A stretch of 45,085 bases of DNA, the filler included, from Jimgerdemannia flammicorona (Eukaryota), in the NCBI GenBank assembly GCA_003990765.1. It is 2 parts of 2 records of this genome, joined end to end, with 100 filler letters (N's around TTAATTAATTAA, not from the genome) between each part and the next. Parts side by side here need not be neighbours in the genome. Positions count along the whole stretch, not along the records: positions 1 to 22,493 come from RBNJ01001266.1; 1 more part is not named here. One strand, written 5' to 3'. Position numbers and translations under genes: made by a program. Below are positions 1,325 through 37,195 of the stretch, piece by piece. The notes under the pieces were generated by a model that was not told the DNA's origin, did no database searches, and saw nothing but the letters and a program-made list of their open reading frames with translations. Within the stretch, counting starts at the first letter, position 1. The number at the start of each line of letters is the position of its first letter.

Positions 1325-2118
1325 ACCAAAACAGATATACTCCAGATATAGCTGAAGGCACCAAAAACTGTGAAAAAGTGGAGAAGACACCAATCAGACA
1401 CCAATAAAGGAGCAACTCATCACTATTGCCTTCTCTCTACTACCCTGCAATAGGTACAGCAAACCAACCCAAGGTAGAGGGGATAATAATTGTGGAAAGT
1501 GAACTCAGAAGGTCACTTACCAAACTATTATAACCAGTAAGGTAGCAGAGAAAGAGATATTGATGATATTATCTCTGATGAAGTAGTTATCTAGGAAGAG
1601 ATATTCATGGATTAATTCTCTCTGTTTACTGAGATAATAATATATTGGGACTTCATTACCATTCTATAGAATAGCATCATCTGTCTCATATACTAGATAA
1701 GGTATTGGTGGGTGAAGGAGGGGTATATTATCTTTGCTTTCATCAGATTTACTATCTGCATACCTTCTATAGGTAACAGTACTATGAGTTGCAGAGTTGT
1801 AATATGCTGGCAGTTATGTTTTATATTGCTCATACTCTGGTGGTAGAGTTGTTAGTTCAATCTTGAGGGTTGTCTGGAGATACAGATTATATTCTCTGGT
1901 CTCTTCATTATAGTTGAAGTAATCAGGAGTAAATATAGGTTGGTACTCATGTCAGTGATCATTATCTCAATAGGTCTCATAGATGGTTATGAACTGTTGT
2001 AAGTTCATCAGTAAGATTGGCAGAATAATCAGAGTTGTCAGAGATTCTTAGCTTAAGATCATATCAGCATCAGAGGGATTGTTATCTTCTACTTTATTAT
2101 CATCAAACCAGATTATAT

Positions 2119-4606
2119 TGTAAGAGGGTTACTTGTTAGAGTAACTATTATATAGTTCCAGAAGAGTTTTCTAGAAGTTCTGGATATTCTGAAAGACTGT
2201 TTTCTTAAGATTAAGATCAATTTTATATGGAGTATATCCTCTATGCTTATTGATTTCAAGATCAGATTGATGTCTCAACCAAAGTCCTTTTTCGGACTAG
2301 TTCTGGATATTCAGGATTTTCTATATTTCAGAAAGTTCAAAAAACTAAGACCAGCTTAGTTGAATTGGCATATTGCTGCAGACAATACCCAATTAGGAAA
2401 TTTCGTAATAGAGTTAGGAGTGGGACCTAATGGAGAGCAGATTTACTTAAGAGTATTGTGTGGGTTATTAAATAGGTTTTATTTACTATTTATGATATTG
2501 CTATACTAAGAGTAGTTGTATGAAGAGATATTGTAAGGAAGTACTCAGAAGTTGTATTCAGATTGTTTAAGTATTTAAGTCTGAGATTTTGAGGTGTAAG
2601 AGAGGGGGTATTTATACTAGTGAGGGGCTATCTGGACTATACTGAATATGGATATAGTACTTAGTACCTTACTGAGTCGAAATATAGTCACATAGTATAA
2701 GTGTGATCTAATATTTCAAGAGATCATCTAGCTACTGTGTCAGTTCACAGTCATGTTGTACAAGGCTAATCTAACTATACTATGACTGCTAAGCTATCTA
2801 TAGATTTAGACACTGTCTAGGTAGTCTTTGATGACATCACTATTGATGATATTATCTCTGATAAAGTAGTTATCTAGGAAGAGTTATTCATAGATTAATT
2901 CTCTCTATTCACTGAGATAGTAATATATTGGGACTTCATTACCATCTTACAGGATAACATCATCTGTCTCATATGCTGGGTATGGAGTTGATGGATGAAG
3001 GAGTGGTACATTGTCTTTACTTTCATCAGATTCACTGTCTGTATATCTTCTATAGATTACTACACTATAAGTTGCAGAGTTGTAGTTAGTGCTCTCAACG
3101 AATTGAATTGAATTGAATTTGGCCCAAACTTGATTCAATTTGATTGAATCAAGGGTCCAATTTGATTTGATTTGAATTGAATCAAAGGTCTAATTCGATT
3201 CAAAGTTCAATTCAAACCTTAATTTTCAAAATGTAATAACTTGATGAAAACTCATCCAAATTTAATGTATTTTAGCTTGTTAGATTTACCGTATTAATGT
3301 GATTCTAACAAGCTAAAGTACGTTAGATTTAGATGGGTTTACGCTGAGTTATTGCATTTTGAAAATTAGGGTTCAAATCAGACCCTCAATTCAATTTGAC
3401 TTTTGATTTGATTCACATTGATTCAAATTGAAAAATCCCCAATTCGATTCAACTCGTTTAACCCTCAATTCGATTCGATTCAAATTGATTTGACTCATTT
3501 GGGAGCACTAGTTGTAGTATGCTAGCAGTTGTGGTTCATGTTGCTTGTACTCAGGTAGTGAAGTGGTTGGTTTGATCTCAAGAGTTGTCTGAAGGTACAG
3601 ATTGTATTCTCCAGTCTCTTCATTATAGTTGAAGTAATCAGAGGCAAATGTGAGTTGGTATTCATACCAGTGGTCATTGTCCCAATAGGTCTCATAGGTA
3701 GTTATAACTGTTATAAGTTCATTAGTAGTATTGGTAAAGTGATCAGAGTTGGCAGGGATCCTTGGCTTGAGGTCATATCAGTATCAGAGGGATTATTGTC
3801 TTCTGTTTTATCATTATTAAATCAAATGATATCATAGACATCCTTCATAGTATATTCTACTTAGGGCATTTGTAGGATGTGGTCATCAGGGTGTAGGAAG
3901 GTTCTGTCTGTAATCTGAACATACTCAATATACTTATAGTTGAGTTCTTGTATTATGTCATTGATTTGGCCATAAGACAGAGTAGCAATCATTTTGGCAG
4001 TAGTAACTTAGAGTCAGAAAATATAGGTACTATACTCATAGAAGAGTTCTTGATGTTTGTAGGCAATGAGTTTCTGATGTTGAGGTATCTGGGTAATATC
4101 TGTATTATAGTAGTATTCAACTATGTCTTCTAGGAGATGGCTGATCTAATAGTAGCTTGAGATTTGTCTGATTCAGTAAGCCTTACTAAGTATGTTTAGG
4201 GCATTCTATTGGACTTCTATAAAGTAGAGGAGTACTAGGCTATAGATATTTATGAGGAGTAGAGGAGGAGTGGCTCAGTTGATAATGGTATTCCAAATAT
4301 CAGTATGGATGCAGTTGTAGATCTTGGTGGTTATGTTTGTATATGTTTAGAAGTTGTGGTTGTTTTTTTGGTTTGTTTTGATTCTCTGTTTTGATGTATT
4401 TCAGTACTCAGTATATATATATTTGGTCCTAATTAGTAAGATTCTGTTTGTATAAATATTGTATTCCATGACTTTGTATTGACTCAGCTTCATGATCTTT
4501 TATTCCATGACTTCGTATTGACTCAGCTTTGTGATCATGCAGGTGATTTCCAGATTTGTTCAGAGATTATATGTGATTTTAGTGGCTTAGAGGTTATGTG
4601 CTTATA
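2119..4606 (-). mobile_element. Complete solo LTR of the same chromovirus family inserted into the 3' LTR (contains MITE copy 2)
   Basis: Starts TGTAAG at 2119 and ends GCTTATA (eroded CTTACA) at 4606. About 2056 bp after removing the MITE, colinear with 17840-19921. Flanks gattatat | tatcatagatatcc rejoin to the uninterrupted LTR sequence seen at ~19115-19135. Confidence 0.88.
3087..3510 (-). mobile_element. hAT-type MITE, copy 2 (424 bp, opposite orientation to copy 1)
   Basis: Termini TAGTGCTCTCAA ... TTTGGGAGCACTA. Perfect 8-bp TSD GTTGTAGT at 3079-3086 and 3511-3518. The empty site is visible in the other LTR copies (~1797 and ~18800). Confidence 0.92.
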
Positions 4607-5409
4607 TATCATAGATATCCTTCATGGTATATCCAACTTAGAGCATTTGTAGGATATGGTCATCAGGGTGTAGGAAGGTTCTGTCTGTAGTTTGAATATA
4701 CTCAATATATTTATAGTTGAGTTCTTATATTATATCATCAATTTGGTTATAGGATAGAGTGATAACCATATTAGAAGTAGTAACTCAGAGACAGAAAATA
4801 ACAGTGCTATACTTATAGAAGAGTTCTCAGTGTTTGTGGGTAATAAGCTTCTGGTGTTGAGACATCTGGGTAATATCTGTGTTATGGTAGTGTTTGACTA
4901 TATCTTCTAGGAGATAGCTAATCTGATAGTAGCTTGAGATTTGTCCAATTTAGTGAGCTTTGCTAAGCATGTTCAGGGCATTCCATCAGGCTTCCATAAA
5001 GTAGAAGAGTACTAGGCTATAGATATTCATAAGGAGTAGAGGGGGTGTAGCTCAGTTGACAATAATATTCCAAATATTAGCACAGATGTAGTTATTGATC
5101 TCAGTGATCATGTTTATGTATATGTTCAGGAGTTGGGGTTGTTTGTTTGGTTTATTGTAGTTCTCTGTTTTGATACATCTCAGTACTTAGTATATATATA
5201 TTCAGTCTTGATTTGTAAAACTCTGTTTGTATAATTCTTATATTCCATGACTTTGAGTTAACTCAGTTTTATATACTGTAACTTTGGTTTGACTCAGCTT
5301 TGTGATCTTGCAGGTGATTTCCAGATTTGTTCAGAGGTCATGTATAATTTCAGTGGCTTATTCAGTAGGTGATATATGATTTCAGTGGCTTGGAGGTTGG
5401 ATGCTTACA

Positions 5410-5423
5410 ACTCTCCCCTTCTT
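5410..5423 (-). promoter_or_regulatory. Polypurine tract (PPT)
   Basis: Minus strand reads AAGAAGGGGAGAGT immediately before the TGTAAG start of the 3' LTR. Confidence 0.85.
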
Positions 5424-5844: not shown

Positions 5845-8800
5845 ATTCAAGGAATTATATTTCTGAACTAAGTTGGTGGTATTCTGGAGATTGGTCTTTG
5901 ATTCCTATATTGCATCATGGATTGAATAACCTTTCCATTTGACAAGGTACTCTGGATGGTTTTTGTGGCTACGTTTGTTGAGGATTTGTTCAACTTTGTA
6001 TTCTTCTTAGTCATTAATAATGATAGGTGCAAGTGATTCTGTAGTTCAGTTGAGAATAACTCATTGTTGTTTTTATTATATTGCTTAAGACATTGGACAT
6101 TGAAGACTGGATGAATCTTAATGGTATCTGATAGTACCAATTTATAGGAAGTAGATGAGACTTATGTAATAACTTTGAATGGTCCAATAAATTTGCTATT
6201 CAGCTTTGTAAATAGTCTGTATTTGAGGTTGTCAACTCAGTATCCTCAGATGTCCAGTAAAACTTTTTCTCCAATATCAAAAGTTTCTTCTTGACAATAT
6301 TGGTTAATATACTGTAACTGTTATTCTTGGGCTTGTAATAAATTCTTGATGGCAATCTGGCTTAAGTTTTATATTCAGAGTAGGAATTCTTCAATGGCTT
6401 TGACTATAGAGAGTTCATCAGTGATTTGGATAAGTATCCGAGAGGTGTTTGAGTTTTATCCTATATTGGCAAAGAATGGAGTAATTCCAAGAAAAGCTTG
6501 CTTACTATTATTGTAAGCAAACTTGACTGTAGTAAGGTGTTATGCTAATTATCTTATCTGTAGGAAATATAGTTCCTTAGCATTTATTCTAGAGTTCAGT
6601 TCATTCTTTTAGTTTAACTATCAGTTTTAGGGTAAAAGGCTATAGATAGTGTAAGTTTCATTCCCAGGTGAGTATAGAGGGCTTTCCAAAAATGGCTGGT
6701 GAATTTTGGGTCTCAATCACTAATAATGATCTTGGGAAGACCATGATAGTAGAAGATTTTATCAAACAAGAGTATAGCAATATCTGGTGCTATTGCAGTA
6801 GTAGTAGTTGGTATAAAGTAGGCTTGTTTGCTGAGATAGTCTATGAAAACAATAATTGTATCTTTCCCATTCTTGGTTTAGGGTAGTTGTATAATGAAGT
6901 CTATAGATATTTATTCCCAATTGGCAGATGGTACTAGGATTGAGTGGAGTAGATCAGGTTTTGCTAGTATTGAGGACTTGTTGCATTAGCAGGTATCACA
7001 GAAAGTGATATAGATCTTTAGCTAATCTGCCATATAGGGTCAATAGAAGTTTTAGGAAATAACTTCATAATATTTGTTAAATCCTAAATGTCTAGCTGTA
7101 GGGGCATCATGATATTTGAATAGGATAGTCCTTTGGAGGTCTCAGTTGTTTGGAATATACAATCTGTCCTTATAGTAAATAGTATTGTTCTTCGGTCAAT
7201 ATTGATGATACTGAGTATACTTGTCAGCATCATCACTACTCAGGATTTCTTGGAGTACTTGAGCTTCTTTATCATTAGTATATACTATGATAATTTGTTC
7301 CATAATAGAGTTTGTAACCAAGGTGAGAGTTGGATAACTTCTTTGATTAGTAGTCTGGAGATTGTATCAGCAACAACATTTTTCTTGCTAGAGTGATACT
7401 GGATTTCATAGTCAAAGTTGGTAAGGACTTTCATCCATCTGACTTGCTTTTGAGAAAGAGTAGCCTGAGTCTTAATGTTGACTAATGACTTGTAGTTAGT
7501 CAATATAGTAAAGTGTACTATTTTTAGATATAATTGATATTTAATCAAGGTATCTATGATGGAAAACATTTCTTTCTCATAGGTTACATAGTTGATTTCA
7601 GTATTATTGAACTTGTGGGAATAATAGGCCATAGGGTATTCTTCTTGTATGAGTACTGCTCTAAGAGCTAGATCAGAGACATCAATAGTAACTTCATAAG
7701 GTAGGGCAGGGTTTGCTGCTTGAAGTACTGGAGTGGTTATCAAGATATCTTTTAGTGCTTGAAAGGCTATATCTTATTCAGGTTACTAATTTATAAGATT
7801 GTTGAATTCTTTCTCTTGTTTCATAGTCTAGGGTTGTTCTTCTTTCTTACTATGCTTGGTTATTTGGGTAAGAGTAGTAGTGATCTTGGCAAAGTTGGCA
7901 ACAAATCACTTATAATAGTTTGCTAATCCCAGGAATAACTGGAGGTCTTTCAGCTTCTTGGGTCTGGGCCAATCCTTGATTGCAGAGATTTTGCTGGAGT
8001 CCACTTTGATTCTATTTAGTATGACAATGTGTCCAAGGAATTGAATTTTCTTCACATTTGCTGAGTTTTGCAAAGAGTTGGTTTTCTTGGAGTTTCAGTA
8101 GTATATACTAGTTTAAGGTGTTTGAGATATTCCTCCAGAGTTTTGCTGAAGACTAGGATGTTGTCAATATAGACAATAACAAATTTATCCAGATATGGGT
8201 ATAGGATGGTATTCATCAATATCTGAAAGGTTACAGAAGCATTAGTTAAGCCAAAGGGTATAACCAGAAATTTGAAATGTCTATAGCAGGTTTGGAAGGC
8301 TGTCTTGTAGATATGTATCTTCTTCTTTCATGGCAATTTGCCAATAGCTATTTCACAGGTCAAAAGAGCTCATGAACTGTGGGTTGGTAAGCCTATTGAA
8401 TATTTCATTGATTCTAAGTAATGAGCAACAGTTCTTAATAGTCTGTTCATTGAGGTCACAGTAATCAATGCATATTTATAGGTCTTCTCCTTTCTTGACA
8501 ACAAAGAGAACTGGTGCACTATAGGGTGATCACTGGGTCTGATGAATTCTTGTTCTAGAAGTTTATTAATTTTTTTTCTTGAGTACATCAATCTCTCTCA
8601 AAGATATATAATAGATTGATTTGAAGGCAGGCTTAGTATCTGGGATAGTCTTGATGGTATAGTCTACTGCTCATTTAGGAGATAGATCTTTCAGGAGTTT
8701 CTTCAGAAATATATCTCAGAATTTCTAGAGTAGGGGTCTGACATGGCTGTCAACTTTAAAAAAGTCTTCTTCAGAGTTCTCAGGTTCTTCTTTGGATAAG

Positions 8801-9390
8801 TGAATAAAGATGGCAAAGAGAGGACATTTCTTAGCCAATTTCTTGAGCTGTAGTTTGTTGATGTGAGTGATCTTTGGTCCAGGGTCACTAGAACTGAGTG
8901 GGTCTTTTTTGCCTTGCAGTTTGAAGTTATGGTATCCTTTCTTAATGGTTAGAGAATGGTTTACCCAATTGATCATAGAGTTCTCTTGTTTCAACCATAG
9001 GGTCTCAAGAATGATTTCATTGTCAGAAAGTGATACAATCTGGAGGGTAACATATACTCAGTAGTCATTAATTCAGAAGAGTAGGTTGCAGACTTTCTTG
9101 CTAATGACATATAAGGTTCCATTAGCTGTGGCAACTACTTGAATTTGTTGTACCAGAGATATGAAAACCTTGAGTCTGTTGGCTGTTTCTTTATTAATGA
9201 AGTTGCCTGAGGTACCACTGTCTATCATAATCTTGACAGGTGCTTGATTGACAAAAGCTTGAAGTATAAGCAGTTTGTCTGATCCAATGGTAGTGATTTT
9301 GGTAGTAAGAGCTTTCCTTCTATTGGTTCTTCTTTGAGCCAGTTCATTGACATAAGAGAAGTAATCATCAATTATTTGGAAAGAGTACAT
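5845..9390 (-). pseudogene. pol: pol relic: aspartic protease, RT, RNase H, integrase, chromodomain
   Basis: PR 9073-9390 (VKIMIDSGTSGNFI). RT ~8000-8600 (YIDNILVFS at ~8146-8172). RNase H 7285-7743 (IDVSDLALRAVL, EINYVTYEKE). IN ~6070-7120 (HPVFNV, FIGPFKV, SIDFIIQLP). Chromodomain ~5870-6007 (EEYKVEQILNKRSHKNHPEYLVKWKGYSIHDAI*E). Many stops and frameshifts. Confidence 0.93.
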
Positions 9391-9492
9391 TTCAATGCCA
9401 TAGAGATATCAGCTACTAGATATATATCTATCTTTGATTTTCTTGTAGAATTGTTCTTCTTTGCTTACAGTAGGTTGGGCTGGGGCCTTATT

Positions 9493-9903
9493 TGATGAGC
9501 CAAATTCTTTGGATCCTCAGATGGTGGGTAGTAGTTCAGAGACTTCCTTGACTGTAAAAGTTGACTCAATTTTTTTGAATAGAATCTGCATAATACAGAA
9601 ACCAATAGGGATCTTGAATGGTATCCAACTGTGATTTCAGATGAGGATAATAATTTTACTTGTGTAATCTTTATCAATGACTTCTCTTTCTACTGAGAGT
9701 CCTTTTAATGCTAGGCTACTGTAACAGCATATTTTTCCAATATGTCCTTCTGGTATTTGGATGCTGATTCCAGTATAGACTTGTTTGACTTCTCAGTTGG
9801 AAACTGTAACTTCTTTAGCTACATATAGGTCATATCCAGCTGCTTTTTGACTTCCTTTGGTTGGGGCCTTAGCAGTTTATCTTAACTTAATAAAGTCTAT
9901 TGT
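9493..9903 (-). pseudogene. dut: dUTPase domain (trimeric type) in frame between Gag nucleocapsid and protease
   Basis: Single frame: TIDFIKLR*TAKAPTKGSQKAAGYDLYVAKEVTVSN*EVKQVYTGISIQIPEGHIGKICCYSSLALKGLSVEREVIDKDYTSKIIILI*NHSWIPFKIPIGFCIMQILFKKIESTFTVKEVSELLPTI*GSKEFGSS. All five dUTPase motifs are present (AGYDL; [R]SSLA; [G]VIDxDY; [R]I[A]Q; [R]GxK[G]FGSS). The bracketed deviations are C>T/G>A changes. Confidence 0.93.
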
Positions 9904-10644
9904 CTTGGTGGTCAGATTGTTGAGGTGGTATAGAGTAGTAACAGTTGCTTGTATTACTGTTCAGGGTTTTTGATTAGGGCAGACACTGGCCATGTGTTCT
10001 GTCTTTTGGCAATAGAAGTATGCTCTACTTCTTTGAAGTTTATTTCTTTTTCCTTCCATGAGTTTCTTGAAGATACTTGGCTGAGTAGGTTCAGGATTTT
10101 GGAGTATCCAAGAGATAGATATGGAGGAAGCTCAGAGTACTTTATGCTTAGGTTCTTCTTTTTTGGTCTAAGTTTTTTTCTTATTGTTAAATTGTCTTTG
10201 AGGCAGGATTGGTCCAGCTGTCAGAATTCGCTTAACCATAGTCTTGATTCTTATCAGGTACCATTATTGGTGATCACAACCAACTAGGCAGCCTTGTTCT
10301 TGGATTTTTCTAGTAAACCATTCAGGCAGTATATTGAATAAATGGTCTGCTCTTATACCATTTCATGCTTCATCATTGGCAATATATCCTAGGCCAATAG
10401 TGTTCAGTAGTGACTCAAGTTTTATACAGAAGGTTTCAAATTCCTCTTTGCTATATATATCAAATTTGAGGTTATGGCATTTAACTCGAGATTCAGCAAT
10501 CATAGTTTCACTATAGTATTGAGCAATCATAAGTTGTTTGAGTCCAGGGGCTGCAGAATGGTGAGGTTCCTCTAGTAACATTCAGGTTATACAATCTTTT
10601 AGCAACACTTTCAATATAGTTTCTGGAGATAAGCTACTAGAATC

Positions 10645-12699
10645 ATGGCAACCAACAAGTGTCCTGAGGTGTGTACTGGGCAGAGTGGCCCTGGAGTGTT
10701 TGAATGGTAGCAAGTGGGGAGAGGCCCTGGCTTGCAGGGAAGCATGAGGGGCCTGCTGGTGGGAGGATGCAGTAGAGGAGGGGGTGGGGCTGGAGGTCAA
10801 GGGTCTGCTGGTGGCAATGGGGGAAGATCTGGACTCCCGAGCTTCCCGGACAAGGTTAAGGAGAGTGGGTGGCTGGCAGGTACTAGGACTGGAGCTGCTG
10901 AGGGGAAGGGTAAGATGAGCCTTAGAAGGGGGGGTGGTGCTCCAGCTGGGAGTGCAGGAGTAGGGGCTGGAGGCACTGTGGCTGGAGGTGTGACTGTTGA
11001 TAGGAATGTGACAGGGAATCAGGAAAAAAAAAGAGATGTGACAGCTGATGGCCAGGTGGGGCAGGGATTCCTGATGTGGAAGGGGGACCTGGCAGATAGT
11101 GTAACAGGGCTAGTAGTGACCCCATTGCTCAAGAAGTCGATCTCAGAGTTCGTGGTGACCTTGTGCTTCAGGGGCTTGGTAGTAACAGTGAGGATGGTTC
11201 TGGGGCTTATTTCAAAGCAGGTGGCTGGGGCGGTCTTGGTGAAGTTCCTAAAGGGTCTGGAGGGGGTTGAGGTGGGCTTTGAGGAGGCAGGCCTACTGGA
11301 TGAGGCGCTGAAGACTGGTGTCATGGTTGGGGAGATGGTGGTCCCTATAGTGTGGTACCTGCAATGAGATCCCAGGGTAGTACAGCTTCTGGTGAAGGGG
11401 GTGCTCATGGTGACTAAGGAGGAGACTAGGAAGAGGGTGGAGGAAGTGATGGTTGAGTATGGTGATGTGGTGGACATTGGCTTTCAGGTGTGGGAGGGGA
11501 TGATGATCAGGATGGGTAATGTTGATGTCAGGATTCAGCTGGTGGGCAAGGAGACCATGGGGAAGGCGAGTGACTGGCTTTCTGTGCTGATGTGGGGGGC
11601 ATTCATCTGTAAGGTTTCAAGGGTGAAGGGGAGTGAGGAGGAGGAGGAGGATTTGTTGGAGGCACTGGAGGAGATGAGTGGAGCTGTGGAGAGGAGAGCA
11701 AGGGCCTGGAAGATGTATGAGGAGTTGATGCATCTAGAGGTTGTGGATGAGAAACATATCTGTACTGACAGAAAGCTGTGGGAGTAGGCACAGGGGTGCA
11801 GGAGACAGAGAGAGCTTCTAGCAAGTATAGTGGTGAAGGCAAAGCAGAGGGCAGTGGGAACTGAAGGGTCTGGGGGTGTCAAGGCCAGTGTTTGGGTGAG
11901 CAAAGGGGGTGGGGAGGTGGAGGTAGATAAGAAAGGGGCTGAAAAGGTGCTGAGCAAGGACCCCTTTGCTGATGGCACTTTTGAGGTTTGGGAGCTAGAG
12001 CTGGATACAACCTCCCCTCTTATCAGGAGGGGCCCGGCTGAAAGGAGGCAGACATCTGAGGATACGCTGATGAAGGGGGCCCAGCAGGTGCACTTTGGGA
12101 TCCCTGATGTGGAACAAGGGGGTCAGGTGGTGGCAGTTGGTGAGGATGAGCTGGTGGATGTCCCTGAGGAGGAGTGGGATGAGGCTGCCAGTGTAGGGAC
12201 TGACACCACAATGTTGGATGTTGGACAGCCAGGGACTCTGGGAGGGAAGGAGGTGGGGAACTTGCTGTAGATGAGCAAGATGATAGATAATCTTGTAGCT
12301 GAGTCTTTGGGAGAGGTGGATCTGTGGGTAATGCCTGAGGAGCATTGGGCACAGATTCTGCATGGTGAGGGAGTGGTGGAGGCACTGAAGGGGGAGATTC
12401 TTTTGATTTTCCTGGAGGAGGAGGGATATGAGGTTGATGAGGTGAGGAGGGCTGAACTGGTAGTGGTCGCTGGGGAGTGGGCAGCATACTGTTGGGTGGA
12501 GCAGCATGGTTTGCAGTTCTAGCAGGAGGCTTGTTGGGAATATTGTGAGAACTTTGAGGAGCAAGAAGATGGGGCAATGGTAGAACTTCTGGGAGGCTTG
12601 GAGGCACAGAAAGCTGGTGAGAGGGAACTAGCTACAGATCATGACTTGGATTTGTTGCAGGAGGAGCAGGATGCAGCATTGTAGAGGGTGGATTCATGA
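10645..12699 (+). pseudogene. LINE ORF1 relic (684 codons, one frame, several premature stops)
   Basis: ATG at 10645. ORF-track pieces 10714, 11392, 11830 and 12271 share this frame. RRM-like segment (LLVKGV...YGDVVDIGF...GNVDVRI). TGA at 12697-12699. Confidence 0.75.
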
Positions 12700-15600
12700 T
12701 ACAACATTTTTCTCTTATGAACAGTACAACCAATGTTTTCTCTTTGAATGTGAATGGGCTAAGGGGATCTGGGTGGTATAAAAACATTTTTAACTGGCTT
12801 AAGGGATTGGAGGCAAATCTCTTTTTATTGCAAGATGTTTAGTGTGAGAATGAGGATGATCAGGTTGAGTGGACTAGGAAATGGGGTGGGGCTGCTACTT
12901 GGTTTGGAAAAGTGCCAATTCTGGTGAGGAAGGGTAGAGGTGACTTGGGGGGTATTGGGAGCTGGGGTGATCACTTGGTCTGGGGAGATTGGCATCGGCC
13001 AGGGTAGGAGTCAGTGAGGGTTAGCTCTTGCTACTGCCCTGCAGTTAGGGGTGAGAGGATTGCATGGATTAAGGAGCTGCTGGAGGAAGGTATTCTCTTG
13101 GAGGAAGAGATTGATGTGCTTGGGGGGGACTTTAATATGGTTCGGGATCAGCATCTAGACCAAACTGATGATGGGCAGGGTACAGGAGGGAGGAGTAGAG
13201 ACCTGGATGTATGGGAGGAGGTGGAGAGGCTGAGCTCCTTAGGAGATATGGGCAGAATATGATGGGGCAACTCAAGGGTCTACACACATTGGGTGAATGA
13301 CTTAGGTACAAGGATTGACTGGATTCTGGCAGCAGATTGTTGGGGGTCTGATATCTGGAAGGCTTTGGAGATAGATTGGTGCTCATGATCTGATCACTGG
13401 GGACTGTTGGGACAGGGGTAGTTTGGGGGGAGTGGAGATGGACCTAGACATTGGCACCTTAACTCCTCTCTGCTAGCTGAGAAGGAGTTGTGGGACTCAT
13501 GGGTAGAGGACATTCAGGCGAAAATTTTCTGCTGGAGGTGTGAGGGTTTGTCAGTGGGTATCTGTTGGATGAGATTGAAAGAGGCTGTGAGGGTCTATTG
13601 GGGAGGGGCTGAGAGAGAAGAGGGGAGGCGAAGGAGGAAGCACATGAGGTGTGCTTCCAATAGGCTGAAGAGATTGCATATAAATTGGGCAGGTCTGCTT
13701 GCTGCTGATGAGGTAGAGGACTGGAGGTTGGCATGAGTTAGATTGGAGATAATGGAACTACAACAGGTGTTGAGAGAAGAGGAAGAGGTGCATATGTGAG
13801 GTATGGCTGCAAGGCTATGGTGGCAGGGGCTCAAGGAGGGTGAGTGGCCTACTAGATTTTTGTCCCATCTGCTCAAAACTAGGAGGGTGAGGTATCGGTG
13901 GGATGGAGTCCTATGTGCCAATGGGGATATGGTATATAGCACACAATGAATCTTAGGGGTTTTGAAAGAGAGATGGTAGGGTTTGTGGAGTGAGGAAGAA
14001 GGGGATACTGATGGGGTGGCTATTGAAGATACATTAGGAGAATGGAGGCTGCCGCAAGTGGCTGGACTGGATGACTTGGCCTTGCCAGTGTGAGGTGAGG
14101 AGGTCCAGAATGTCCTTGCAGCAACTAGACCCGGAATAGCACCAGGGGAGAACAGACTACCATGGGACTTTTAGAAGAAGATGGTTATGGTCCCTGGTGT
14201 TTTGGGTGAGATAACTGCTCTCTGTGATCATGTTCTTCAGAGTGGTGAGTGGGTTGGAGAGCAGGACCTCAGGCTGGTGGCTTTATTGTATAAAGATAAG
14301 AGAAGGAGAGAAGACTGGAAGAACTGGCAGCTGATCATGCTTTTGGACATGGATAGGAAGATGGTGACTAAGGTGGTTGTTGCAAGGCTGCAGAAAGTTG
14401 CTCAACAGATGCTGGGGGAGGAGCAGTGGGGCTTTGTTGGGGGTAGACTTATAAGAGATGGGACTGCTTGGGTGCATGGTGTCATTGAAGGGGCCCGAGC
14501 TTGTGGCTTGGATGGAAGGTTGGTTTTCTTGGACCAGGAGAAGGCCTACAACTGGGTCCGGCAGGTTTGGCTGAGTAAGGTGTTGGATCATATTGGTATT
14601 CCCCCAGGATTTCGGGCTTCTATGTTGAGTCTGCTAGAGGGTAGTTGGGTGGTACTGATGTGCAATGGTTACTGTGGTCTGGCATTTACCTTGGAAAGAG
14701 GGGTTCCTCAGGGGGACCCCCTGTCCCCTATTCTGTATGCCCTCTCTTTGGAACCTTTGATGGATAGAATTTGCCAGAAAGTGGTAGGGCTCTCTATCTA
14801 TGATATAGTGTGGAAGGTGGGAGCATTTGCAGATGATATGATGGTTGGCCTTGGGTCTGTGGCAGATGTTGAAGTAATTAAGGTGGTAGTGGATTAATAT
14901 GAGAATTACTCTGGGGCGAAGCTCAACTGGCATAAGTGTGAGACTATGGTGTTGGGAAATGGGCTGGTGGGTGGAGATATCATTGGAACAATTGTCCCTA
15001 CTGGTGAGGTGGTATGGTATCTGGGCATCTTCCTCTCTATGTATGGCTCTGTCCTGCTATGAGTGTGGTGGGAGAGCAGGGTGGCTACTTGGGGGGAGGC
15101 CCTTTGAGGTTGGGGAGGCCACCATATCTCTCTAGCAGGGTGGGTAGCAATTCTGAATGTGTACTGGTTCCCCAAGCTATGGTATGTGGCCTACCACCTT
15201 GACTTCTCAGCTTGGATGGTGAAGAGGCTGATGAAGGTGGCTAGGGATTGGATTTGGGCAGGGCAGAGGTTCCATATACTCTTGTAATATCAGTAGTTAG
15301 GGGAGATCTTGGCCTTATAGATTTCCCTAAGAGATTGCACTGCTTGTGAGTCTGGTGGTTGAAGAGAGCAGCTGAACTGCAAGGAGGGGGTTAGGTGCCT
15401 CTGTTGCAGAAGGTGTGGGAGATGCGAGCCTCCCCTCGAGGGTCCTCAGGAGACCTACTCTCTTTGGTAGGGCTCAAAGGAATTCAGAGGCTGAGATTTA
15501 AGGGCTTTTGGTGGGGAGTGGTTGATGGAGCATACAGAATTTGTCTGCACTAGCAGGGCAATGAGGGGGAGATATTGTGGGGACCTAGTATATAGTGATG

Positions 15601-16216
15601 GGATAGATTGCTACTGAAAGGTGCTCCACTTGCTGCTTTTGATATTGGGGATGGAGTGGAGTATCAGCAGGGTCTTGGCCAGGATCTTTGGCCAAGTGGC
15701 TAGCAGGCAGTCAGGATTGGCAAGGAGTGGGACTGGGTGGGTATCTGGTCTTAGAGTGCTAAGGTATGGTGGTGGCTTCCCCCCAAGTTCTGGGTGGTGT
15801 GGTGGCAAATACTGCGGTGGAATATCATGCTGAATTTCTGCACCAGGCATCTGGTGGATGGTGGCTGTTTCAATTGTGAGGAGTGTTACAATGTAGGGCA
15901 AGCTGGGGGTTTGGTGCAGATACTGGAATATTGGCTGGGAGATTGTGAGATTTTGGGGGACTTTTGGGTTGCAATAGGAGATAGGCTGGGTGTGGGGCGC
16001 AGACTGGTGGGTGAGGGGGATTGCTGGGAGGGCTTGAGGTCTTGGCTAGTGGGGGGAGTGGGGGATAGTTGGCTTACTATTGGGTGGGTGTTAGCAATTT
16101 GGGTGGGTTTAGCAGAACATTGGTTATTTGTGTTTGAGGAGGGGTGGCAGGTGAGCCTGCAGGAGAAGGTCTTAAGGTGGGAGGAGCTGCTGGGAGATCT
16201 GATGACTGGATGGTGA
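12696..16216 (+). pseudogene. LINE ORF2 relic: APE endonuclease, reverse transcriptase, C-terminal Cys domain
   Basis: APE motifs SLNVNGLRG, GGDFN, RIDWIL, SDH. RT motifs QWGFVGGR, DQEKAYN, GVPQGDPLSP, AFADD. C-terminal CFNCEEC. Contains stops and frameshifts. Confidence 0.93.
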
Positions 16217-16428
16217 ATAGGTTGGGGTCCTTCAGGGGGGTGATGGTGAGGTTTGGTGATAAAGATATGTGATCAGAGTGGTGGGAGGGTAGGAATTGTA
16301 TTCGATAGAGTGGTATTTCATTGAGAAGGGGTAGGGGGGAGGGGCCCCCCTAGGGGGATAGGGTAGGGGGTGGGTTCACTGTACTTATATGGGATAGATG
16401 GGTATAATAAAGGAAGAGTCTGAGTGAC

Positions 16429-16464
<36 letters not shown>

Positions 16465-17824
16465 GCTACAGGATGGGCTCTATATCCTGGGGCATTGTTT
16501 GCTACATTCTGGGCAATAACTGTAGATTGAGTATCCCATATAAGGGGCTTCTTAGGAAGGATTTGCCACCATTCTTTAGCAGGTCCTCAGAAGAATATAA
16601 TAACTTGATGGATATAGACCATAGTAGTAGCAAAGAGTTGTTCCAGAGTATGGTCTTGATTATTTGTTAGAAAGCAGTCAGCAACTTGCTCATTGGTCCA
16701 TTGATTGGCTTTAAAGTTGATATCAACTATACTAATGAAGCTTTGGACTTCTTATGTAGTACCATTAAAGATAGATAGGCTCAGATTTTTAGTTGGTCAG
16801 GTCTGTTCGGCTAAGGCAGTAAAGGTTGCTGCCATTATGGCTACCTGAGTTATAAGGTCTAGAATCTGTTGATTTGCCATGTTGTTTACTGGAGACAGTT
16901 GGACTACTGGTAGTTGGGTTACTGATATGACTTGAGGTACTGGTATAGAGTATGATGGTATTCTTTAGGTCTATGTAAGTTACTGGAGTAATAGTTGTAG
17001 GTCTGGAGTAAGGGCTTGATAGATAGCTGTCTATTGCTGTATAGGTATGTTCTGTCCTGATAGAGGTGCATCTCCTTCAGTAGTATATCCAGGATTGAAT
17101 TCACTGAGATACTCCTTCTTCTCTTTAGCTTGGTCCTTATGTAGTTGGGTTTGCTCAGCATCGAAGTAGACAGAATCAGTTGTATATCTGATTTCAGATA
17201 GGCTTAATTCAAAATCAAGTTCCAGTTCAGTATTGGTTTCAGATTTAGATAAGATTATAGCTGAGCCTGCTTCTGGTTTGGGGCCAGGTTGTTGATAGAG
17301 AGTTACTCTTACTTCTTCTTTAAGAATATGGTAGACCTTGCAATTCTGGAAGCAGTAGTATAAGGTGGTCTTGGTTCTTGTATAGTGAAAGTCAGTAGAG
17401 TTGAGCTACTTGGCTATAGAGGCTTAGACTTTATGAGAAACTAAGGCTAGAAAGACTGCTGCTGGTTATCCTAGGTTGCTCAGATTTGTAGAGCTGACAA
17501 AACTCTTATTGAGAAGAGTAAAGAAGACTTCTATAAGACCTTCTTTATCTTGACTTGCTGGGTGTAGAGCAAGGAGTTTGGTATATAGGGTTTTATCTAT
17601 TTACTGATTTAATTAGAGTACTCTTTCTTTAAATGAAGTTTGTCCCACTTGTTGTAGGTGTGGAGGTCAAATTGTCCTTATGTTAGGTTTAATTCTCTCT
17701 GGATTGTCAGATGGTTTAGGATAAATTCCAGTTCAGAGATTGGGCTTTATACCAACTTATAGGAATTCTCAGAGAAGTTTGTAGTAGAGTGAGAAAGTAT
17801 CTTGAAGTAGAATTGAATTGTAAA

Positions 17825-17836
17825 CCACTGCTACTA
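17825..17836 (-). promoter_or_regulatory. Eroded primer-binding site (tRNA-iMet-like)
   Basis: Minus strand reads TAGTAGCAGTGG 3 nt after the 5' LTR. This is one G>A change from TGGTAGCAG, complementary to a ...CTGCTACCA initiator-tRNA 3' end. The tRNA identity is inferred. Confidence 0.55.
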
Positions 17837-17839
17837 AGT

Positions 17840-19921
17840 TGTAAAAGAGTTACTTATTAGAGTAACCATTACATAGTTCTAGAAGAGTTTTCTGGAAGTT
17901 CTGGATATTCTGAAAGACTGTTTTCTTTAGGTCAAGATCAATTTTATATAGAGTATATCCTCTATGCTTATTGATTTCAAGATTGAATTGATATCTCAAC
18001 CAAAGTCCTTTTTTGGACTAGTTCTGGATATTTAGGATTTTTCATATTTCAGAAAGTTTAAGAAACTAAGACCAGCTTAGTTGAATTGGCATATTGCTAC
18101 AGACAATACCCAATTAGGAAATTTTGTAATAGGGTTAGGAGTGAGATCTAATAGAGAGCAGATTTACTTAAGAGTGGTTTGTGGGTTATTAAATAGGTTT
18201 ATTTGCTATTTATGATATTACTATACTAGAAGTAGTTGTATGAAGGGATATTGTGAGAAAGTGCTCAGGAGTTGTATTTGGATTGTTCAAGTCTTCAAGT
18301 CTGAAATTCTGAGGTCTGGGAGAGGGGGTATTTATACTAGTGAGGGGCTATCTGGACTAGACTGAATATGGATGTAGCACTTAGTATCTTGTTGAGTTGA
18401 AATGCAGTCATATAGTACAAGTGTGATCTGACATATCAAGAGATTATCTGACTGCTGAGTCAGTTTACAATCATATCATATAAGACTAATCTAACTATAC
18501 TAATGACTGCTAAGCTATTTATAGATTTAGATGCTGTCTGGATAGTCTTTGATAATATCACTATCAATGATATTATTTCTGATGAAGTAGTCATCTAAGA
18601 AGAGTTATTCATGGATTAATTCTCTCTGTTCACTGAGATAATAATACATCAGAACTTCATTACCATTCCACAGAATAGTATCATCTGTCTCATATGCTGG
18701 GTAAGGTGTTAGTAGATGAAGAAGGAGTGCATTATCTTTGCTTTCATTAGATTCACTGTCTGCATACCTTCTATAGATAATAGCACTATAAGTTACAGAA
18801 TTGTAGTATACTGACAATTGTACTTCATATTGCTTATACTCTAGTGGTGGGATTGTTGGTTTGATCTTGAGGGTTGTCTGGAGATACAGGTTATATTCTT
18901 CAGTCTCTTCATCATAGTTGAAGTAATTAGGGGTAAATATAGTTTGGTACTTATACTAGTGGTCATTATCTCAATAGGTCTTATAGGTAGTTATGAACTA
19001 TTATAAGTTCATCAGTAAAGTTGGTAGGGTAATCAGAGTTGGTAGAGATTCTTAGCTTAAGGTTATATCAGCATCAGAGGGATCATTATTCTCTGCTTCA
19101 TCATTATCAAACTAGATTATATTATAGATATCCTTCATAATATATCTAACTTGGGACATTTGTAGAATATGGTCATCAGGGTGTGAGAAGGTTCTGTCTG
19201 TAGTTTGAATATACTCAATGTACTTATGGTTGAGTTCTTGTATCATATCATTGATTTGGCCATAGAATAGAGTGGCAATCATATCAGTGGTAGTAACTCA
19301 GAGACATAAATAACAGTACTATACTTATAAAAGAGTTCTTAGAATTTGCAGGCAATGAGTTTCTGGTATTGAGACATCTGGATAATGTCTGTATCATAGT
19401 AGTGTTCAACTATGTCTTCTAAGAGATAGCCAATCTGATAGTAGCTTGAGATTTATTCAATTTAGTGAGCTTTGCTAAGTATGTTTAGAGTATTTCATTG
19501 GGCTTCTACAAAGTAAAGAGGTGCTAGACTATGGATATTCATGAGAAACAGAGAGGGTGTAGCTCAGTTGACAATGGCATTCTAAATGTCAGCATAAATG
19601 TAATTATAGATCTCAGTGGTTATATTTATATATATATTCAGAAGTTGAAGTTGTTTGTTTAGTTTATTGTAGTTCTTTGTTTTGACACATCTCAGTGCTT
19701 AGTATATATATATTTGGTCTTGATTAATAAGACTCCATTTGTATAATTCTTATATTCTGTGACTTCAAGTTGACTCAGCTTTGTGTACTGTGACTTCAGT
19801 TTGACTCAGCTTCATGATCTTACAGATAATTTCCAGATTTGTTCAGAGGTTATGTATGATTTCAGTGGCTTGTTTGGCAGGTGACATGTGATTTCAGTGG
19901 CTTGGAGGTTGTGTGCTTATA
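17840..19921 (-). repeat. Uninterrupted 5' LTR (2082 bp)
   Basis: Ends TGTAA...CTTATA. Minus-strand TATAAATA at 18329-18336 (also 2609-2616 in the solo LTR) and AATAAA at 18198-18203 imply a U3 of ~1.6 kb. Confidence 0.92.
18527..19623 (-). pseudogene. LTR(U3)-encoded ~365-aa ORF of unknown function (other copies at 2806-4334, and 1558-2118 plus 4607-5111)
   Basis: One long frame in the three LTR copies. ATG retained at 5109-5111. Stops in one copy are mostly CAA/TGG in another. Terminal TAA shared at 18527 and 2806. Preceded by a TA-run at 19703-19713. Confidence 0.8.
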
Positions 19922-21456
19922 AGTATCCAGAAGTGATACCAAGAACAAGTCAAGAACAAAATTGCTATTATAGTTCTTAGAGCAATTGAATGACAATAAA
20001 ACTCTACTGAACTATCATCTGTCAATATATATATTACTGAAGACCTTAATCCAAATAAAGCCCAACAATGTCTTGATAGAATATAATATTTTCAGGCTTT
20101 CTGCTATTAACAAGAACTTAAGGAATACTATAAGATAGAACACCTTATCTATCAATAAGCTACCCTTAGTACTGTCAAGCAATGAGTCTATCTTTTTATT
20201 GATAACTATACTTATATAGTTGCCAAACAACTCTATATCCTTTTCTATACCAGACCCTAAGTTCTTGATCATCTCTGTAGAGTATTCCCTAAAAATATCA
20301 TCAATTTGAATGATGAACAATAGAGCAAAATTATTTTTCAAGTAGTTCAGTATATTGTTCACCAGTTTGATAAATATCTAGAGTTTAGTATTGAGTCTAA
20401 TGAGTAGGCTTAAGTAAAGAAAAGAAGAATATAATAAATTAATACAAGCCTCTGAAATTTCTATAGAAATTTCTATAGAATTTCTAACTAGCAGTTATAG
20501 TTACTTAAAGTGGTATAACTATATAGATATACTTAGTACACTATATTTAATCATAGCCTTGAATATATATAAATACTCTCTATACTGAGTATGTTGTAAC
20601 CTCAGCTCTACTTTCTCTAAATATAAGAATAAAGTAATATTCTTATTATAGAAACTCCTCAGATTCAACTTGTTAATAATTCTAAGTTTGATTAACTTGA
20701 GATATAAGTACAGCTATTCTCATCAGTACTAGAACCAAAAGTAATACTTGGACTCTGCTACATTAGATAATTGAAACTCAGAACTTAGAGCTAATAGTTA
20801 TTATTAATTATCTGTAATATATTAATTCTATCAGTATATAGTTTTATTATAAATAGATATTTAAAAATAAAGTAATTTATTTAAGAGAAAATTATGATAT
20901 ATAATCTGAATTAAATATAAGTTAAAGAATAGATATTTAATTATATTATTTAAATTTAATTTCTAATATAATATAATTATTATTAGTAAACTTATATAAA
21001 TAACTCTAGAATTATAAGTAAATAAACCTTAGATTAAAATAATTTAGAAAGAATAAGTAGTTTGATATATAAAGAAATCTTTAGATATATAATTCTGAAA
21101 GTTAAAAGAATTTAAAATAAAGAAATCTGATATACTTTTTAAGTTAAGTATCTACTATATTATAATATATAGAATTTCTTTAAGAATTTCAAAAATAAGA
21201 AAGTTATAAATTCTGATTATATGTGAATTTTAGTTATATATAAATTTTCTTTCAAATAAAGAACTAATATATTATTATATTATTATAAGCTATTAAGAAT
21301 TTCAAATAAAATTAAAATTTAATTTAATTTAACTAATTTGAATTGAACCTTCAATTCAATTTGAATTAAATCAAATTGGACTCTGAATTTGATTTGAATT
21401 CAATTCAATTCAAATATGAAAATCCCCAATTCAATTTAATTCATTTGGGAGCACTA
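19922..21456. mobile_element. Extremely AT-rich TE relic ending in the same hAT-type TIR as the MITEs
   Basis: ...TCATTTGGGAGCACTA ends at 21456, with AATTC/AATTG subterminal repeats from ~21310. Decayed plus-strand frame at ~20020-20430. No partner TIR is visible. Confidence 0.55.
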
Positions 21457-27631: not shown

Positions 27632-27940
27632 CTAAAATAGGAGCGTTGTTATAGCTGTAATCCCTGTGGCCACGGCTGCAATCGCACACGTCAGACACAT
27701 AGAGATTACGCCAAGGGCGCCGATACTTTGAAGAATCGCAATGACACCACCGGCGGCAACGGCGCCTCCATAACTTGACATAAAGGATGCGGCCGCAGTT
27801 CCGGCAACGATTCCACCGGCTCCGAACCCAAGAAAGGTCACCAACAGGGGGGCGACATAGGGAACTGCAATCAAGCAAACGACACCAACGGCAACGGGGA
27901 TGGCGATTTTGAGGATTTTGCGGAAGTTCCAACGAGCCAT
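27632..27940 (-). CDS. IFI6/IFI27 (ISG12)-like small hydrophobic protein, 102 aa
   Basis: LGFGAGGIVAGTAAASFMSSYGGAVAAGGVIAILQSIGA matches the Ifi-6-16 family signature. Intact ATG-to-stop ORF. Confidence 0.85.
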   Translation of the reverse strand: MARWNFRKILKIAIPVAVGVVCLIAVPYVAPLLVTFLGFGAGGIVAGTAAASFMSSYGGAVAAGGVIAILQSIGALGVISMCLTCAIAAVATGITAITTLLF

Positions 27941-29062
27941 ATGTTTTTCTGTGGTGGGGGTATGTTGATTATGTTAATTTTCGCAGTGGGAAATATGAAT
28001 GGAAAAGTAGCGTCATTAAAATATTTATACATTATATCTACAATGCCAAATACACAAAGGAACATTTCGTGACACCGCCAGACAAACAAAGGGAGCAAAT
28101 GGACACAGAAGATTACGCCGAATGGATCGGCCATCCAGGGTAACCCAGCCCAATCCTACCCATGACAGTGGCCCGATCCGTTACAACCGGGTTGACGGGT
28201 TGATTGACATAATTATGTTCTTGGTTCTTCAAAGAAAATGCGGCAAAATAGAACTGTAGATCAACTCTTTGTCACCGTTACTTGAAAGTCTCCCAGTTTC
28301 TCAATTAATTATGAATACTGAGCGTTTTAGGAAAATTGAGCATTCCTGGAATGTCAGACTGTCGGTATTGACCGTGTTCCGGAAGGCGGCAACATACTTA
28401 TTATTACAAGAATGTAAAAGGACTAGTGCTCCTAACAAAATGAATATCAGCCCATCCTCCTCCGCATCGCGGACTTCCCCATGTTCTTCAAGCATGTCAA
28501 CGGAAGGAAAGAGCACTCCCTTGCACATATATAACAGCTCCTCAACAAGTCCAATTTCACAACTCAAAAAATTTTCGCACACCCCTTCCCTTTCGCGAAT
28601 TCGAATTGCAGTCCTGGAATTGTGCTGGTTTGTACGAAGAGACACCTTGCGCCTATGTTGCGAAATATTAGCTTGGCACCCGGCCCCAGACTAGTTTGGC
28701 GAGGAGTTTTCCATTTCTGCACTTTTGGTTGTTAACCCTGGTCGACCCTCGACCCGTTAGGAGCCCTATTACGTGCACATTGGCCATCAAAGATCATTAG
28801 CCAAAGTTCCTGATTGGTTTTTACTGTACATTACATGGATCACGTCTGTGAGGATTAATACCCAACGAACCGAAGCAAATACTAGTTTAGGCGCAATAAT
28901 TGAGGCAACCATTATAAACAGTTTTACGGGCGATATTAAGTGGGGGTAAAATATTATAACCGCGATAATTATATAATTATATAAAATTGTTGACATCACG
29001 TTTCCTAAGCCACCTCCATCACCGTCCTCTTGACCAACAAAGCAACGTCCGACCATCACGCC

Positions 29063-29665
29063 ATGCCAGAAACCCCCGAGGAAAAGACCCGCCGCTTCCA
29101 GATCGAGCTCGAGTTTGTACAGTGCCTTGCGAATCCGTGGTACCTCCACCGTGTGTGTTCCTCAATTATCCTCTCCTCGCTGACTGATGATAGGACTGGT
29201 TCTGACACCATCGTCTTCATTCCACCAAACAGACCTGGCACAACAGGAGTATCTGAAGGATCCGGCTTTTATCAACTACCTCGATTATCTACAGTACTGG
29301 AAACGGCCCGAATACGCCAAGTTCATCATGTGCGTCACAAACCTGCCCGTGTATCATATGTTGCTCGAATACCTCTTATTCAACCCCCTTTACCTATGGT
29401 CTCACTAACTTTCTTCACATTTTCTTAAAGATACCCTCACGCCCTCCACTTTCTTGACCTCCTTCAACACCCCGCCTTCCGCGACAAGCTGATCCTAAAG
29501 AAAGAAACGGAAGCCATCCACCAGACACAATATTACCATTGGGCGTACTACCGGAACCCGCCGCGCACGCAAGGGGCACCGGAGGTGGGCGCACAGCAGC
29601 AGCAGCAGCAGCAAGAGCTGGCGAACGGGGGACCGGCAGCTGACGGCGCGGCGCAGAGAGCGTGA
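29063..29665 (+). CDS. MED31: Mediator subunit 31 (SOH1)
   Basis: Exons 29063-29150 (RFQIELEFVQCLANPWYL), 29233-29329 (LAQQEYLKDPAFINYLDYLQYWKRPEYAKFI) and 29431-29665 (YPHALHFLDLLQ, poly-Q tail), with GT-AG introns in phase. Confidence 0.97.
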
Positions 29666-36245: not shown

Positions 36246-37195
36246 CGAGCTCGTTCATGGCAACTTCCAATCCCCCATTGAAGACCGCCTAGAGGAAGGA
36301 ATCCGGGTTCTGGACGGTACTATCTCATGGGTTTTCTTCGATAGGTTGCATTCACGTACACTAAATTCAATCTTATGCTAAATTTTAGCTGGCTGCGGCT
36401 CGGGCGTTTGGTGCCGTGAGATGGCTGAGGAATTCCCCGAGTCAACTTTTGTGGGCGTCGATCTGGCCACCTTTTTTAACGCGGTTGACCCCGACGATGT
36501 CCCCATTAACTGCTCCTTCCAGCAGGCAAGCATACTCCACCTGCCTTTCGAGGACGAGACCTTCGATTTCGTCATACAGCGGTTCCTCGGCATGGCCTAC
36601 TCACCTTCGGACTGGGAAACCGCTCTGAAGGAGCTCATCAGGGTGCTAAAGCCCGGCGGGTGGATTGAGCTGGCCGAGGGCAATTTCATCATGCAACGGC
36701 CGCCGGCGTGTTATCAGAGGTTCTACAATTCGCGTAAGATTTTTCTTTCTTTCCGGAATGGGGATGTTCATTAGATTGCTCGATTCAAATTACCTATCTC
36801 TCAAATTACCACAATCCAATCCACTAGAAATATATTGACTTCCCCCACCTCTCGCCATTTTGTACTTCCCAGTCGCAGCAGTCTGTCTCTCTCGCGGTGT
36901 GGACATTAGCCTCCTTCACGCCGTCCCGATGCGGCTTGCAGAGACAGGCGTCATCGAGGACATCACTATCGACTACCTAAGCATACCAACCGGATGGCAC
37001 GGCCGGATAGGTGATATCTGCCTCGCCAGTTTTGGAGCCGCCATGCGCGCCCTACGCCCTGCTATCGCGCCCACTATGGGTCTCGACAATGAGGGGTACG
37101 AGGCCATGTGCCAGGAGGTCCTCAACGGGTTCCGGGAGAAGAAGACTTGGTTTAAGGCACCCTATGGGTTTGGGATGAAGAGGGTGGAGGGGTAA
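35824..37195 (+). CDS. Class I SAM-dependent methyltransferase (LaeA-like family), 5 exons
   Basis: Exons 35824-35921, 36041-36100 (ILPSDETEINRLDYQH), 36246-36316 (GNFQSP...RVLD), 36389-36733 (AGCGSG...LPFEDETFDFV...RVLKPGGWIEL) and 36873-37195, all GT-AG and in phase. Confidence 0.92.

Follow-up and report, generated by a model that had tools for sequence, protein, structure and literature searches.

The mobile lineage of a Ty3/Gypsy chromovirus of Jimgerdemannia flammicorona (hereinafter, family A) retained, as judged from substitution patterns, a dUTPase under purifying selection and with its catalytic residues intact. We consider it likely, at roughly 70%, that family A used an active dUTPase that would have kept uracil out of its cDNA, an active enzyme being most likely since the constraint on transversions in the dUTPase matches that on the reverse transcriptase (RT). 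The family has a high copy number and encodes Gag with its CCHC knuckle, the dUTPase, a Cys/His module, protease, RT, RNase H, integrase, and chromodomain, in that order, in one long frame. It is represented by a dead copy in the window, that is, the whole stretch of 45,085 nucleotides analyzed here. The selection result, a family-wide change in motif IV of the dUTPase, and the conserved Cys/His module are new in this study.

The window element and its dUTPase frame

The window element is a decayed, LINE-interrupted Ty3/Gypsy chromovirus of family A (Table 1), with the order protease–RT–RNase H–integrase between the LTRs, a primer-binding site (PBS) and a polypurine tract, and a chromodomain that closes the integrase at its C-terminus; the stretch from the chromodomain to the polypurine tract showed no env. 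The splitting of gag by a 5.9-kb LINE was recognized by aligning 12 sister stretches to the window; the LINE has a poly(A) tail and is flanked by a target-site duplication of 16 bases (10546–10561 and 16461–16476, 14 of 16 bases alike). A Pfam scan of the RT stretch, made in one frame only, gave no matches, and this region was recognized via the alignment to sisters. The PBS-like motif may resemble the initiator Met tRNA end; the priming tRNA itself was not found, the nine-base pattern being unspecific, with 3,939 matches. A second LTR copy (about 4606–2118) interrupts the 3′ LTR and in turn carries a short inverted-repeat element (about 3090–3510), and from this we infer the nesting order in this region.

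Table 1. Features of the family A element in the window, in the order of its transcription; all coordinates count along the whole window.
Feature	Coordinates	Strand	Remarks
5′ LTR, about 2.08 kb	17840..19921	minus	alignment to sisters
PBS-like motif 3′ of the 5′ LTR	17828..17836	minus	TGGTAGCAG in sisters
Leader and 5′ part of gag	16461..17827	minus	collinear with sisters at 84–86%; separated by the LINE
LINE-type element in gag	10562..16460	plus	Exo_endo_phos E 5.8e-4 (below cut-off); RVT_1 E 4.8e-22
3′ part of gag up to the knuckle	10021..10561	minus	alignment to sisters
Gag CCHC zinc knuckle	9976..10020	minus	YFYCQKTEHMASVCP; dUTPase frame; first Cys is Tyr in the window copy
dUTPase domain	9493..9903	minus	137 codons; PF00692 E 5.6e-26; PDB dUTPases
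dUTPase motifs, window copy	I 9840-9826; II 9729-9715; III 9687-9664; IV 9603-9586; V 9519-9493	minus	
Cys/His module, CxH-x12-CxxC	9352..9459	minus	between dUTPase and protease; conserved ligands in sisters
Aspartyl protease	8938..9273	minus	DSG 9225-9211; RVP_2 E 1e-9; gag-asp_proteas E 2.6e-6; dUTPase frame
Reverse transcriptase, decayed, frameshifted	8050..8724 (approximate ends)	minus	about 83% DNA identity to sister RTs
RNase H	7414..7779	minus	RT_RNaseH E 7e-22
Integrase zinc finger and core	6635..7144	minus	Integrase_H2C2 E 1.3e-11; rve E 5.3e-6 (below its cut-off)
Tf2-like SH3 domain and chromodomain	5854..6269	minus	SH3_Tf2-1 E 1.1e-13; Chromo E 1.2e-12
Polypurine tract	5410..5423	minus	directly before the 3′ LTR start at 5409
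3′ LTR region	1563..5409	minus	own 3′ LTR 5409-4605, then 2122-1563; self-alignment

The initial annotation had placed a dUTPase in frame between the Gag nucleocapsid and the protease, in a frame free of indels that the ORF track misses because of stops. All of this held. The knuckle, dUTPase, and protease form a single frame on the minus strand, from 10020 to 8938, with zero indels and with the quoted peptides present; four internal stops (9879, 9795, 9639, 9519) interrupt the dUTPase, two more flank it (9963 before and 9411 after), and no ORF of at least 100 amino acids spans it. The proposed HMM search with the restored peptide was equally clear: with X at the stops, the 137 codons match PF00692 at 91.3 bits (cut-off, 22) over model positions 3–128 of 129, and the best match among solved dUTPases in the PDB has E 6.4e-20. 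Translation of the plus strand of 9493–9903 gave nothing. The peptide IEMYSFQ, previously assigned to the protease ORF, belongs in fact to the separate Cys/His module, the protease beginning about 73 codons past the dUTPase. In sister L035, the frame runs from gag through the chromodomain with six stops, and the Gag knuckle matches PF00098 (E 3e-4); the knuckle ligands are retained in 90–93 out of 95 copies.

The window copy of this dUTPase-bearing Gypsy element is dead: it has lost the Arg of motif II and the Arg finger of motif V, and with four stops the motifs are not intact. Its 5′ and 3′ LTRs differ by 117 transitions and eight transversions in 810 bases; partial LTR pairs in four sisters are 94–98% alike. 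Compared with four sisters, the window copy shows mostly C-to-T/G-to-A differences, with rates per site of 0.54–0.59 at CpG, 0.33–0.36 at CpA, about 0.21 at CpC, and 0.13 at CpT; in the dUTPase, this type accounts for 44 out of the 55 differences that separate it from sister L077. Similarly, all 65 stops across 89 full-length copies are one transition away from the commonest codon. After insertion, the LINE split the window copy, which decayed by transitions.

The suggestion that the deviations from the dUTPase motifs are themselves transitions holds for the motif II Tyr, for Gly to Glu in motifs III and V, and for the CGA-type stops, the commonest states behind this decay being Arg in motif II (54 out of 89 copies) and Gly in motifs III (86 out of 89) and V (79 out of 89). 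It fails for CGT to TGT: motif IV has Cys in 89 out of 89 copies, with no Arg codon, nor is CGT ever found at the motif II Cys codons. The change from GCG to ATG is possible, GCG being found in three and GCC in 53 out of 89 copies.

The window holds several further elements and genes. An inverted-repeat element of about 370 bases occurs at 939–1312 and 3145–3518 in opposite orientation (91% alike), the latter copy sitting in the nested LTR, and a related piece lies near 21300–21450. The 2.08-kb LTR (17840–19921, minus) holds a long sense reading frame, 299 codons in sister L036, with an acidic tail. Past the N gap, host genes at 27632–27973, 29009–29665, 36382–37195, and 41570–42088 encode an Ifi-6-16 family member, Med31, a methyltransferase, and a GRDP-like protein, respectively.

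Family A copies and selection on the dUTPase

Searches of the 231-Mb genome gave 7,683 first-look candidates for the dUTPase query and 3,654 for a family-specific gag query; these are not copy numbers, since only 150 were scored per query. In order to avoid selection via the dUTPase itself, copies were chosen by gag, 70 of the 150 matches being taken (30 top loci and 40 picked for downstream room). The dUTPase was missing from none of the 70 copies examined: 53 align over at least 130 dUTPase codons, 15 enter the dUTPase and then reach the contig end, one has the dUTPase with an internal inversion, and one stops 4 bases past gag. Pooling gave 113 loci, 96 of them distinct and 89 with a full, indel-free dUTPase, a sample skewed to best-scoring, young copies. 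Among these 89, 46 have no stops in the dUTPase, 27 have one, 13 have two, and three have four. The knuckle-to-protease stretch is indel-free and in one frame in 70 out of 75 copies spanning it, ruling out a transframe fusion of the betaretrovirus type for family A; the order nucleocapsid–dUTPase–protease is thus possible within a single reading frame. One family A locus, L144 (G000:C21363), has a clean 343-base inversion beginning within the dUTPase.

Since decay after insertion proceeds by transitions, selection was assessed on transversions, counting single-base alleles against the commonest codon of each column and dropping multi-base alleles (23 in the dUTPase); the test tallies alleles, not events on a tree. 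The dUTPase transversions of 91 copies comprise 34 synonymous and 16 replacement alleles on 156 and 666 opportunities, respectively, that is, N/S 0.11 (binomial p 5e-14). Elsewhere in the element, transversion N/S is 0.14 in the gag end (95 copies), 0.15 in the protease (69), 0.14 in RT (47), and 0.23 in the spacer (78).

These counts bear most directly on the reading of the dUTPase as a neutral passenger that was picked up a single time and spread merely by sitting in frame within a successful element. Such a history could be seen in the singleton transitions, which are near neutral in the dUTPase (N/S 0.97), as decay predicts, and in the scarcity of the domain among RT relatives: PF00692 is present in one out of 120 nearest RT relatives among the matches listed, many of which may be 5′-truncated, so that, most of them having no dUTPase, the enzyme is dispensable for chromoviruses generally. 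It is contradicted by the transversions, as strongly constrained in the dUTPase as in RT (Fisher p 0.28), by the shared transversions in the dUTPase (five synonymous and zero replacement), and by the retention of the motifs in four families of this genome (A–D), whose dUTPases are 34–61% identical to each other. We therefore regard a neutral passenger as highly improbable, and constraint on the dUTPase of family A appears, from these allele counts, to have been as strong as on RT.

Active site, fold, and the Cys/His module

Mutants of the dUTPase of African swine fever virus (ASFV) at D29, R71, S72, S73, D91, Y94, Q120, R149, and F154 are described as having reduced or no activity (PMC7948977). 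Mapped by motif, the equivalents of all nine residues are the commonest state in family A, and 28 out of 89 full-length copies combine zero stops with all nine residues kept. Together with the purifying selection, this makes an active ancestral enzyme probable, as the initial annotation had proposed; many natural stop-free dUTPase domains exist, and activity is therefore open to assay. The RSS of motif II is common, with Ser in 97 out of 224 homologues, and is present in ASFV. Intact family A copies share with the homotrimeric dUTPases (human, yeast, vaccinia, ASFV; PF00692) the fold and five motifs, and likewise the catalytic Asp, Tyr, Gln, Arg finger, and Phe lid. They differ in that the domain is embedded in a polyprotein and motif IV has Phe–Cys where most have Asp–Arg. 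The predicted structure of stop-free sister L079, for which dUTPases were included in the alignment, has pLDDT 94–98 across the core of the dUTPase; its match to human dUTPase (1q5h) has E 8e-14 and rmsd 1.9 Å over 137 columns.

If the retroviral dUTPases are a guide, the enzyme would be made within the polyprotein, packaged in the particle, and trimerized, and would convert dUTP to dUMP and pyrophosphate at the site of reverse transcription. With less dUTP, RT would add less uracil to the cDNA, which would then escape cutting by host uracil repair. As in betaretroviruses, the dUTPase may remain linked to the knuckle of the nucleocapsid.

The change in motif IV speaks in favor of a non-catalytic job, e.g., a trimeric scaffold that brings knuckle and Cys/His module together, or a protein-binding switch, with hydrolysis weak or secondary. 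The Cys is a family trait rather than decay, since it is found in all 89 copies; it is also present in a diverged metagenomic relative, L200, and loss of the basic residue may lower enzyme activity. Moreover, the host possesses its own dUTPase gene, and a conserved module of unassigned role adjoins the dUTPase. Against this, all nine ASFV-tested residues, which do not include the motif IV position, are the commonest family state; Arg or Lys occupies that position in 204 out of 224 homologues, and the other 20 have neither, as in family A; and families B and D keep the motif IV Arg within the same layout. We thus consider a mainly structural role unlikely and prefer an active enzyme.

The module that adjoins the dUTPase lies in the 73 codons separating it from the protease. 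Its ligands are retained in 69–74 out of 76 family A copies; in the window copy, all four putative ligands are Tyr and are preceded by the stop at 9411. The ligand pattern suggests that the module binds zinc. It also follows the dUTPase in family D and in outside protein P0108, and is present in two metagenomic sequences, L200 and L201; P0108 is 51% identical to family A in the dUTPase and 58% over 50 residues of the module stretch. Families B and C and outside protein P0304 have the dUTPase layout without the module. Pfam gave no matches to the module of a family A member; for that of family D, the E-values were no better than 0.021 and 0.66. A PDB sequence search with the module gave nothing under E 0.1, two atlas searches yielded no usable match, and the module was absent from viral contigs. 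Its model, built on a six-row alignment, has pLDDT 76; the top structural matches reach Z 4.0 and, in Foldseek, E 3.8, values that speak neither for likeness to a known fold nor for novelty. A literature survey, mostly below full-text depth, found neither the module nor any test for selection acting on the dUTPase of a retrotransposon.

The module and the decay pattern could together be taken to mean that dUTPase and module formed a counter-defence against host uracil-based damage (deamination or uracil-DNA glycosylase) going beyond cleaning of the nucleotide pool. The strong C-to-T decay at CpG and CpA and the company of module and dUTPase in families A and D and P0108 agree with this. Yet the dUTPase substrate is free dUTP, not deaminated bases in DNA, the decay takes place after insertion, families B and C and P0304 do without the module, and L201, a metagenome contig, has the module with no dUTPase in the preceding 112 codons. 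Such a role seems improbable to us, and removal of free dUTP by an active enzyme is the reading we retain. L201 has further Cys-rich motifs after the module.

Relatives, origin, and known dUTPase-bearing elements

Families A–D share the order knuckle–dUTPase–protease. The dUTPases of B, C, and D (L044–L072, L105–L113, L126, L180–L199) are 37–41% identical to that of family A; only D of these three has the module, and all three show a similar primer-binding motif. The host dUTPase gene, L104 (G000:C33350), is intact-looking and intron-bearing; L043 (G000:C6287:6592-7119) is an intronless, slightly decayed copy of it, 91–93% identical over matched exons. L043 is a processed retrocopy, and therefore host mRNA can undergo reverse transcription here. 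The dUTPases of the four families are 40–42% identical to this host-like copy (42% for family A).

A dUTPase tree had been proposed as a way to find the donor. In our tree (137 columns; 70 hand-chosen rows out of about 240 aligned), family A falls, with weak support (87/85, unstarred; bootstrap not settled), beside the outside retroelement proteins P0304 and P0108 rather than the host. Grouping of family A with the host is not rejected (AU test, p 0.171), nor is a single origin of all knuckle–dUTPase–protease rows (p 0.255). The search for a viral donor gave 11 viral loci at 34–51% identity, none nearer than other matches. In the RT tree, whose rows are unnamed sequences and plant/algal relatives, A, B/C, and D are not supported as sisters; a search for RT homologues yielded no close named relative.

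dUTPases in LTR retrotransposons are said in a chromovirus survey to have been reported a few times, their role and origin being called unclear (PMC2864245). According to its description, the Gypsy element PosPlaTy3-3 of Postia placenta has a dUTPase at the Pol amino terminus, and in other Postia elements the domain is also found at the Pol carboxyl end or between protease and RT; Phanerochaete and Tuber Tmt1 elements are cited as further carriers (PMC2864245). Judged by this published description rather than by sequence, PosPlaTy3-3 resembles family A in having the dUTPase before the protease; since this placement has already been published for a fungal element (PMC2864245) and the window copy is dead, that of family A is only moderately surprising. 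PosPlaTy3-4/-5, the Phanerochaete and Tmt1 elements, rotifer Juno, Vesta, and TelKA, and a planarian giant Gypsy element are, like family A, Ty3/Gypsy elements with a Pol dUTPase, but theirs is described in the protease–RT interval (as in the rotifer and planarian elements) or at the Pol C-terminus, whereas that of family A lies between knuckle and protease (PMC2864245, PMC5408684, PMC6431247). In rotifer Juno, the dUTPase is followed by an additional zinc knuckle (PMC5408684, PMC6431247). For Entomophthora muscae, an enrichment of dUTPase, protease, and knuckle domains has been described.

The likeness to betaretroviruses noted in the initial annotation is one of position only. In MMTV and MPMV, the NC-dUTPase directly follows the NC knuckle and precedes the protease, as in family A, and has been proposed to act at the site of reverse transcription (PMC4531489). 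However, these are enveloped viruses whose dUTPase is described as a transframe product of gag–pro frameshifting (PMC4531489), whereas family A has gag and dUTPase in one frame and a chromodomain. More broadly, it is conceivable, though rather doubtful, that a chromovirus lineage independently evolved a frameshift-free, betaretrovirus-like NC-dUTPase along with an undescribed CxH-x12-CxxC zinc-binding domain regulating the enzyme or tying it to the reverse-transcription complex, that knuckle–dUTPase–finger modules are exchanged among distant RT lineages, and that a major share of the repeats of this genome belongs to dUTPase-bearing families.

A further placement of the domain in retroelements is seen in outside proteins P0078, P0079, P0088, and P0159, where the dUTPase comes after a stretch resembling RNase H (PF17917 in P0159); P0078 and P0079 are Copia-like by eye.
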